A stretch of 64,000 nt of DNA from Escherichia coli (GTDB lineage Bacteria; Pseudomonadota; Gammaproteobacteria; Enterobacterales; Enterobacteriaceae). Below are positions 19,101 to 20,623 of this stretch, in pieces (within the stretch, counting starts at the first letter, position 1; the number at the start of each line of letters is the position of its first letter). Position numbers and translations under genes: made by a program. A model generated the notes under the pieces. It was not told the origin of the DNA. It saw only the letters and a list, made by a program, of their open reading frames with translations, and made no database searches. Location of the stretch: NCBI RefSeq assembly GCF_001677475.2, contig NZ_CP015229.1. One strand, 5' to 3'.

Positions 19101-20295
19101 CGGCTGCCTGGTGTTCAGCTATGACCGGAGCGGCTGGCTGACCGGGCGCACGGGTCAGATGTACGACCATGACCATTATTATTACGATAAAGCCGGAAAC
19201 CTGCTGAAGGATGAGTATCAGAGTGCGGTGATGGACAACCGCCTGCCGGGCTACGCGCGTGACAGCTACCGCTATAACGAATGGGGTGAACTGACAGAGC
19301 GGCGTGAGCAGCAACTGGCGTGGAACGCGCAGGGTCAGTTAACGCGGGTTATCAGCAGCAACAGCGAGACGCGGTATCAGTACGATGCGCTGGGCAGGCG
19401 CATCAGCAAGGCGACATATGGCCGCCATACGGACCAGAGGGAACAGCGGCGGACGACGTTTGTGTGGGAAGGATTCCGGCTGTTGCAGGAGACAACGTGG
19501 CAGGGAAAGCGGACGTACCTGTACGACGCGGAACAGCCATACACGCCGGTGGCGGCCATCACGGGGCGCGGAGAAAGCCGGAAAATCTGGTATTACCACA
19601 CGGACCTGACGGGCACGGTACAGGAGGTGACGGCGTCGGACGGGACGCTGGTGTGGGCGGGCTACCTGGCGGGATTTGGAGAAAACCGGGGCGACATCAG
19701 CAACAGCGGGGCGTACTTTGAGCAGCCGCTGCGGCTGCCGGGGCAGTATTATGATGAAGAGACGGGGCTGCACTATAATCTGTTCAGGTATTATGCGCCG
19801 GAGTGCGGGAGGTTTATCAGCCAGGACCCGATAGGGCTGGCGGGTGGATTAAACTTATACCAGTATGGGCCTAATCCGCTGGGCTGGATCGATCCGCTTG
19901 GATTAAGTGGCGAAGATGTCTTTATTCATTATACGGATAAAGAAGGTTTTGAACGTATAATGAACTCTGGAGTTATCGAACCAAATTCAAAAGGTAAAGT
20001 TTATATTAGTGATATATTGATGTCTCCCGATGATGTTATGAGAGATATTTTTATAGGTAATTCCAGACATGCAGGGCGTGGTGATTATGCTATTATATTT
20101 AAGGCTGACTCCGCGCAGATGAATAACATAATCAGGAGTTCTGAATTAGAATATATACATTCTGGTCGATTAAAACTTGGTGAAATACTTTATGCAAGTA
20201 AGAATCCGTACCACATAATATCCCACTTGCCTTATGAACAGAGATTAAAAATGATGCAGAACCAAGTAAAATCCAGAGGAGGTAAATGTGGTTGA
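16153..20295 (+). CDS. rhs: prePAAR/PAAR-Rhs polymorphic toxin with variable C-terminal toxin domain
   Basis: N-terminal [10 protein letters not shown] prePAAR motif and TM helices, PAAR-like region, long YD-repeat core, [27 protein letters not shown] boundary, then ~135-aa AT-rich C-terminal domain. Confidence 0.9.
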
Positions 20296-20623
20296 GCAAA
20301 AAAATAAGAATTTGTTGTTAAATCAAGGGGAAGTGGCGGCTTTAAAGAAAGCCATTATGTACCTGAAGTTTTCATGTGAAGAAACAGAATCTTTATTATA
20401 TGCGGGAAGTCCTCTTATTAACTCTGTATTCGCTAAACTATTAGATATTGATGATTTAGGACAGCAAGCAAAGGAGTTCTACAGTAAAAAGCATGCTCAA
20501 AATGAAAGATTTATTTTAGCAAAGCTGAAAAAATCGGAAGAGGAAGATGATATAATACTTAGTAAAGAGACAAGAGAGAAATTTTTTGAAGATTGTCTCT
20601 ACCCGTTTACTAAAAATGAATAA
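20288..20623 (+). CDS. Candidate Rhs immunity protein
   Basis: 111-aa acidic protein; start overlaps rhs stop, RBS AGGAGG; AT-rich like the rhs 3' end. Confidence 0.45.

Follow-up and report, generated by a model that had tools for sequence, protein, structure and literature searches.

Which toxin forms the AT-rich C-terminal tip of a PAAR-Rhs protein of Escherichia coli, and which protein protects the producer from it? The 1380-residue protein is encoded at 16153..20295 (+) of a 64,000-nucleotide (nt) stretch of contig NZ_CP015229.1 (assembly GCF_001677475.2), referred to here as the window, with a mean GC content of 0.537. It consists of prePAAR and PAAR regions, a YD-repeat shell, an RHS core, and a Tre23-like tip, and it is followed by an overlapping open reading frame (ORF) of 111 codons. 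The features established for this locus are (i) its anatomy, (ii) its homology, (iii) the conservation of catalytic residues, (iv) a predicted fold, (v) the linkage of toxin and immunity genes, and (vi) a type VI secretion system (T6SS) context. The tip is very probably an ADP-ribosyltransferase (ART) of the Tre23 family (Tox-ART-HYD1, H-Y-E clade), and the overlapping ORF its cognate immunity protein of the Tri23 family.

Anatomy of the Toxin/Immunity Cassette

The tip and the overlapping ORF are a swapped toxin/immunity cassette. The C-terminal autocleavage region of the Rhs protein, [27 protein letters not shown] (DPIGL…DPLGL), occupies 19825..19905 (+; Rhs residues 1225-1251). In an alignment with Plu0353 from Photorhabdus laumondii, its D1247 falls on the catalytic D1338; the D1338N substitution abolishes C-terminal cleavage of Plu0353 (PMC8636562). 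The toxin domain begins directly after this region at 19906..20295 (+; Rhs residues 1252-1380, coding 19906-20292) and comprises 129 residues and the stop codon, with a mass of 14.6 kDa. The Rhs core has a GC content of 0.602, compared with 0.347 for the tip and 0.321 for the 111-residue ORF. DNA similarity to the rhs genes of 226 complete E. coli genomes ends at approximately 19902-19909, that is, at the end of the motif (query base ~203-210 of the segment 19700-20700). These boundaries bear out an earlier sequence-only reading of this DNA, which had recognized a cleavage motif followed by an AT-rich, swapped tip (here 60% GC giving way to 32-35%), and they shorten its estimate of the tip from about 135 residues to 129. 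Other members of the 90%-identity cluster to which this Escherichia Rhs core belongs carry quite different tips, which are annotated as DUF6883, HNH/endonuclease VII, and DUF4329.

Relationship to Tre23 and Tox-ART-HYD1

A profile built from 18 homologs of the tip matches chain L of PDB 7pq5 (“Tre23”, residues 1344-1468) with an E-value of 1.4e-60. By BLASTP, the tip is 63% identical to Tre23 over 127 residues (E 1e-58), and its identity to the wild-type gene of strain TT01 (locus L027, BX470251) is 63-64%, without significant gaps. The two domains also agree in length, in their start right after DPLGL, and in residues H8, Y9, and Y33. The construct in this PDB entry is Rhs1 (Plu0353) of P. 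laumondii with the detoxifying substitutions Y9A and Y33A (PMC8661411), both of which are seen in the alignment. The whole Rhs carriers of E. coli and P. laumondii are only ~30% identical; the tip is thus far better kept than its carrier, which is the signature expected of a horizontally exchanged tip. The sequence-only reading had placed the tip in an unrecognized toxin type. At 63-64% identity to a characterized toxin, and with a weak match to PF15633, the tip instead belongs to no new kind of system but is an uncharacterized member of the known Tre23/Tri23 family.

Profile searching, carried out exhaustively over 1.84 billion representatives, returns 201 relatives of the tip at E ≤ 0.001. 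A word-indexed search covering 5.8 billion proteins returns 22 with 52-80% identity, mostly short, orphaned pieces of Rhs C-termini that come from Enterobacterales and Pseudomonas.

The profile search of the tip against domain libraries that had been proposed with the sequence-only reading returns Tox-ART-HYD1 (PF15633) as the sole Pfam family at E ≤ 0.01, and the tip has no match in NCBIfam or PADLOC. The Tox-ART-HYD1 match is weak, with an i-Evalue of 0.0011-0.0019, 19-20 bits, and coverage of model positions 3-73 out of 97. Among 60 homologs of the tip, PF15633 is matched by 41 at E ≤ 0.1 and by 15 at E ≤ 0.001, the best value being 1.7e-9. The family was defined in 2012 by Zhang et al. (PMC3482391), and its members share with the tip a C-terminal place in RHS/T6SS toxins.

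Catalytic Residues

The numbering of the tip is that of Tre23, both being counted from right after DPLGL. Substitution of His8 and Tyr33, which are putatively catalytic, removes the toxicity of Tre23, and the Y9A/Y33A pair has been used to detoxify constructs (PMC8661411). The tip carries H8, Y9, and Y33 at the same positions, and all three are invariant or nearly so in the 18 close homologs, with Y33 invariant throughout the close family. Across an alignment of 60 diverse members, H8, Y9, T10, G59, E82, G98, and N100 are conserved in at least 90%. The motif FIHYTD (tip residues 6-11), which had been singled out from the letters of the sequence, proves well chosen: its histidine is the putative catalytic His8 of the family. 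The predicted H-Y-E triad of the tip is H8, Y33, and E82 (codons 19927-19929, 20002-20004, and 20149-20151, respectively, all on the + strand), an assignment to the H-Y-E rather than the R-S-E clade.

An ExE motif is the signature of the R-S-E (cholera/C3-like) clade of ARTs. The sequence ELEY (tip residues 80-83) had been described as ExE-like, a description that fits its second glutamate, E82, which is conserved, but not E80, which is variable even among close homologs, where it is R, A, M, Y, N, or D. Because E80 is freely replaced and E82 alone is kept, the tip has no ExE motif. Membership in the R-S-E clade (cholera/C2/C3-like), which is marked by a conserved Arg, Ser-Thr-Ser, and an E-x-E catalytic motif, was considered and rejected, as the first conserved motif carries His in place of Arg and E80 is not conserved. 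Residues H8, K31, Y33, and E82 instead fit the pattern H, [RK], [FY], [DE] of the Tox-ART-HYD1 family (PMC3482391), and the Tre23 family has itself been placed in an H-Y-[EDQ] clade (PMC8661411).

Predicted Fold

The AlphaFold2 model of the tip, computed from a 60-sequence alignment, attains a mean predicted local distance difference test (pLDDT) score of 93.5 and a predicted template modeling (pTM) score of 0.87. In the model, H8 lies in strand 1, Y33 in strand 2, and E82 just ahead of a later strand. All structure matches of the model have the ART fold and include Agrobacterium 6b, OspC3, DarT, pertussis-like toxins, and Xenorhabdus TreX; the tip is accordingly predicted to adopt this fold. 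A nuclease or another non-ART domain was rejected as the identity of the tip, given the absence of any such match in the searches and the predicted ART fold. The guess that the tip is an ART-type toxin, originally based on short motifs, is borne out by its homology to Tre23, its conserved catalytic residues, and a confident ART-fold model.

The Tre23 subfamily departs from PF15633 at its C-terminus. Most of the wider family stops at a “GPNPF” motif (tip residue ~102), whereas the Tre23 subfamily adds a two-helix extension of ~27 residues, with helices at 101-107 and 110-123, in which Y110, R113, Q120, R124, and C128 are kept. The extension may contribute to recognition of the ribosome or of ribosomal RNA (rRNA).

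The Immunity Protein

The predicted cognate immunity gene, a diverged Tri23 homolog of 111 codons, lies at 20288..20623 (+). It has a GTG start preceded by GGAGG 5 nt upstream, overlaps the rhs stop by 8 nt, and is translationally coupled to rhs. The size and overlap of this ORF are as the sequence-only reading had given them; the acidity also attributed to it is just mild, with an isoelectric point of 5.3 and 20 D+E against 17 K+R residues. The protein is predicted to be all-helical and has no match in Pfam, NCBIfam, or PADLOC. Its homologs number 49, are ~110 residues long, come from Enterobacterales, Snodgrassella, and Burkholderia, and share the conserved core [15 protein letters not shown]...SPLINS.

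The protein P0247, of 106 residues (L027 6001-6321, BX470251), is encoded next after the 1471-residue Rhs protein plu0353 and is 28% identical to the E. coli immunity ORF (E 2e-17). By its position in the TT01 genome, P0247 is Plu0352, that is, Tri23. Linkage between the two families is consistent: in a scan of one genome per species, all 16 Tre23-like tips are followed by a member of the immunity family that starts at or just before the toxin stop. These 16 loci come from nine genera (Leclercia, Pseudomonas, Serratia, Photorhabdus, Mixta, Xenorhabdus, Snodgrassella, Caballeronia, and Brenneria). The specificity of the immunity protein for the E. coli tip is suggested by this genetic linkage. 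An Imm-My6CBD-type protein, which is the partner listed for HYD1 toxins (PMC3482391), was rejected as the identity of the immunity ORF; the ORF has no Pfam match and is without the tryptophan that belongs to the conserved E, R, F, W signature of that type, and its family differs from that partner.

Across genera, identity to the E. coli proteins is 59-74% for the toxin and 28-66% for the immunity protein, the latter falling to 28-31% toward the Photorhabdus/Xenorhabdus group. The immunity protein thus evolves faster than the toxin, which makes cross-protection by Tri23 doubtful. The gap between 59-74% and 28-31% also suggests fast co-diversification of toxin and immunity protein on a conserved catalytic core. 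That the Escherichia variant forms an immunity-specificity group of its own among Tre23-family members, possibly with a shifted target site or linkage, is an unlikely further step. If it held, the two-helix extension could dock onto the ribosomal GTPase-associated center, and the homolog native to E. coli could offer a practical means of working out how Tre23 links ADP-ribose to RNA.

Proposed Mechanism

The enzymatic activity, rRNA target, cleavage, and immunity mechanism proposed for the E. coli proteins are taken from experiments on Tre23 and Tri23. Tre23 causes translation arrest that depends on NAD+, leaves an ADP-ribose adduct on H44 of the 23S rRNA (nt 1095-1098), and abolishes the GTPase activity of EF-G, while Tri23 binds the toxin without repairing the adduct (PMC8661411). 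In the E. coli system, the EagR-type chaperone would stabilize the N-terminal region of the Rhs protein, the PAAR domain would cap the VgrG spike, and the T6SS encoded upstream would fire the complex into a neighboring bacterium. Aspartyl autoproteolysis between WIDPLGL and SGEDV (at D1247, equivalent to D1338 of Plu0353) would free the 14.6-kDa tip from the YD-repeat cage. In the cytoplasm of the target cell, the tip would then use NAD+ to ADP-ribosylate helix 44 of the 23S rRNA in the GTPase-associated center, a modification that would impair the EF-G GTPase and stop translation. Within the producing cell and its kin, the immunity protein, which is small and helical, would bind and block the toxin without reversing the modification.

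The putative N-terminal autocleavage motif PVDVTTGQ lies at 16825..16848 (+; Rhs residues 225-232) and is preceded by Asn224 (with it, 16822-16848); the segment aligns with D288-PIDVTTGQ of Plu0353. In Plu0353 the motif serves in N-terminal autocleavage, and the D288N substitution there abolishes both this cleavage and the full-length protein's toxicity (PMC8636562). Every Escherichia member of the Rhs core cluster carries PVDVTTGQ, and position 224 is Asn in 11 of 11 full-length Escherichia members. With Asn224 present in all of these, N-terminal processing may differ in this lineage.

Activity, Target, and Integrity of the Toxin

Several considerations weigh against identifying the pair as a ribosome-targeting toxin with a Tri23-family antidote: (i) the activity and target of the E. 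coli tip are transferred by homology at 63% identity; (ii) the Pfam match, taken alone, is weak (E ~1e-3, ~20 bits); (iii) the toxin domain is unresolved in 7pq5, which leaves the AlphaFold2 model without an experimental structure as a check; (iv) Asn224 replaces Asp288 of Plu0353, so that release from the cage may differ in detail; and (v) the immunity protein is just 28% identical to Tri23, which suggests that the toxin surface it recognizes has diverged.

Some of these points bear on the target. The tip could be an active ADP-ribosyltransferase that modifies something other than the Tre23 site, such as EF-Tu (as TreTu does), FtsZ (as Tre1 does), another RNA, or another position in the 23S rRNA. 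In keeping with this, the tip departs from Tre23 at 37% of its residues, its immunity partner has diverged strongly (28%), and the linkage chemistry of the Tre23 adduct is still unknown (PMC11833690). TreTu (Salmonella, acting on EF-Tu; PDB 7zhl), TreX (8s2m), RhsP2 (7rt7), and Tne2 (6b12) do resemble the tip in their ART fold, their position at the C-terminus of a T6SS effector, and their downstream immunity gene. However, they share only 9-16% identity with the tip model, and their targets are EF-Tu, structured RNAs, or NAD+ itself. The subfamily-specific extension (~101-124, with Y110, R113, Q120, and R124 kept), which the wider HYD1 family lacks, also argues for a conserved substrate. A different target is therefore improbable.

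The chemistry itself could differ as well. Tne5, an Rhs toxin with the ART fold, acts as an NADase (PMC13285283), and a tip of this Tne-like kind would be an NAD(P)+ glycohydrolase that kills by depleting NAD+ rather than by transferring ADP-ribose. Such an activity is very unlikely here, as the tip is 12% identical to Tne2 compared with 63% to Tre23. Moreover, Tre23, the negative control of the Tne5 study, has no measurable NADase activity and does not measurably deplete NAD+/NADPH (PMC13285283), and its in vitro toxicity depends on ribosome modification (PMC8661411).

The idea that the cassette is an inactive remnant, a displaced or decaying tip whose immunity gene is kept merely for protection, is hardly credible: many database homologs are indeed short orphan fragments of 85-220 residues, an orphan copy near phr in another E. 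coli strain has a premature stop in the tip, and the exact immunity protein occurs on 45 contigs against 9 for the full-length Rhs protein (identity over 1380 residues being naturally rarer than over 111), but the tip of the window forms the in-frame C-terminus of a full-length PAAR-Rhs protein with all delivery partners present, its catalytic residues are intact, and six independent assemblies carry it without a difference or an interruption.

Delivery Genes and Gene Order

As expected of a Tre23-family effector with its Tri23-family immunity protein, the tip is the C-terminal domain of a PAAR-Rhs protein, placed right after a DPxGL site, with genes for VgrG and an EagR chaperone upstream and within a T6SS cluster. 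On an Rhs copy that differs by 3 residues (locus L003), Pfam recognizes prePAAR_I, PAAR_motif, DUF6531, RHS_repeat, TEN_YD-shell, and RHS. The VgrG spike that would carry the PAAR-Rhs protein has 737 residues (13452..15665, +; NCBIfam TIGR03361, E 1e-166), and a product of equal length called at the corresponding place of E. coli drafts matches Pfam Phage_GPD, Phage_base_V, and Gp5_trimer_C. The EagR-type chaperone of the DcrB/DUF1795 family has 147 residues (15689..16132, +). Its assignment to Pfam PF08786 (DcrB) was read from an equally long product called at the corresponding place of loci L002-L007. It occupies the same locus position as the EagR protein Plu0354 of P. laumondii, to which it has weak N-terminal similarity (E 7e-6).

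The order vgrG, eagR, PAAR-rhs, and immunity gene is the same as that of the Tre23/Tri23 locus of P. laumondii TT01 (plu0355 to plu0352; PDB 7pq5; PMC8661411, PMC8636562). The E. coli system differs from that of Plu0353 in its Rhs carrier (~30% identical), its immunity protein (28%), and the Asn before PVDVTTGQ. It differs further in its host, Escherichia, and in where the cassette sits, namely the yafV-ivy-fadE end of its chromosomal T6SS cluster.

Farther upstream, the window encodes Hcp/TssD, TssK, TssL, TssM, and a TagF-like ORF in addition to VgrG. Between tssM and vgrG (10152-13427, +) lie ORFs of 231, 158, 256, and 233 residues, as well as one of 128 residues that is called in related loci. 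Apart from a weak TagF-like match of the 256-residue ORF, these have no match in NCBIfam. They could be accessory T6SS genes or effector/immunity genes.

Distribution in Escherichia

Among T6SS effector alleles of E. coli, the cassette is a rare one. Megablast and sensitive blastn searches of the 5,426 complete RefSeq genomes of this species match the Rhs core alone, and the cassette is missing from every one of them. The exact Rhs and immunity proteins are present at the same locus in E. coli draft assemblies, with the gene intact and the tip identical in six, and 178 E. albertii contigs have records of close variants of the immunity protein. As a rare allele found in some E. coli drafts, with immunity records in E. 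albertii, the cassette could play a part in competition between strains in the gut. NCBI lists the exact Rhs protein under accession WP_244585965.1 with the name “RHS repeat-associated core domain-containing protein”, and the immunity protein as “hypothetical protein”. Because these names are generic, the specific function predicted from homology, a ribosome-targeting RNA ADP-ribosyltransferase with its immunity protein, is newly assigned in Escherichia. The pair gives the Tre23 family a second member, one that is easy to manipulate, for studying the RNA-ADP-ribose linkage and the specificity of immunity.

Downstream Elements and Mobility

The cassette is followed by a hairpin, a SymE-like ORF, and an ISAs1/H-repeat fragment, beyond which lie the core genes yafV, ivy, and fadE. 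The hairpin (20630..20667) has a perfect 13-base-pair stem flanked by an A-run and a T-run. Its RNA fold has an energy of -18.7 kcal/mol (z -4.6), and none of 200 shuffled sequences is as stable. It is probably a bidirectional terminator between the convergent immunity and symE-like genes. A scan for consensus terminators missed it because its loop is 12 nt long; direct folding found it.

SymE is a type I toxin family. The SymE-like ORF (20673..20966, -) encodes 97 residues, converges with the immunity gene, and matches NCBIfam SymE at E 1.7e-12, although its 47 bits fall far under the curated cutoff of 132 bits. Pfam SymE_toxin is matched by an equally long 97-residue product at the equivalent position. 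With a GC content of 0.52, the ORF is unlike the AT-rich cassette. It accompanies the cassette in both genomic contexts seen, which does not imply a functional link between them.

H-repeat transposases are a classical distal component of Rhs elements. The fragment in the window, of the ISAs1 (H-repeat) family, encodes 104 residues (21347..21661, +) and matches NCBIfam NF033564 at E 7e-22 over profile positions 55-126 out of 314. The remnant is degenerate over 21180-21661 (+), with stop codons in the reading frame upstream of the 104-residue ORF.

The second genomic context is in E. coli GCA_012294705.1, where positions 145-1941 of locus L009 correspond to window positions 19825-21611 at 95.9% identity but at a different chromosomal site. 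This block extends from DPIGL over the tip with its premature stop, the immunity gene, and the symE-like gene to the ISAs1 fragment. Upstream of it the Rhs core is missing, and its neighbors are a DUF1722 gene and the phr photolyase gene. This orphan block indicates that the exchangeable unit is ~1.8 kb long and includes symE and the H-repeat remnant.
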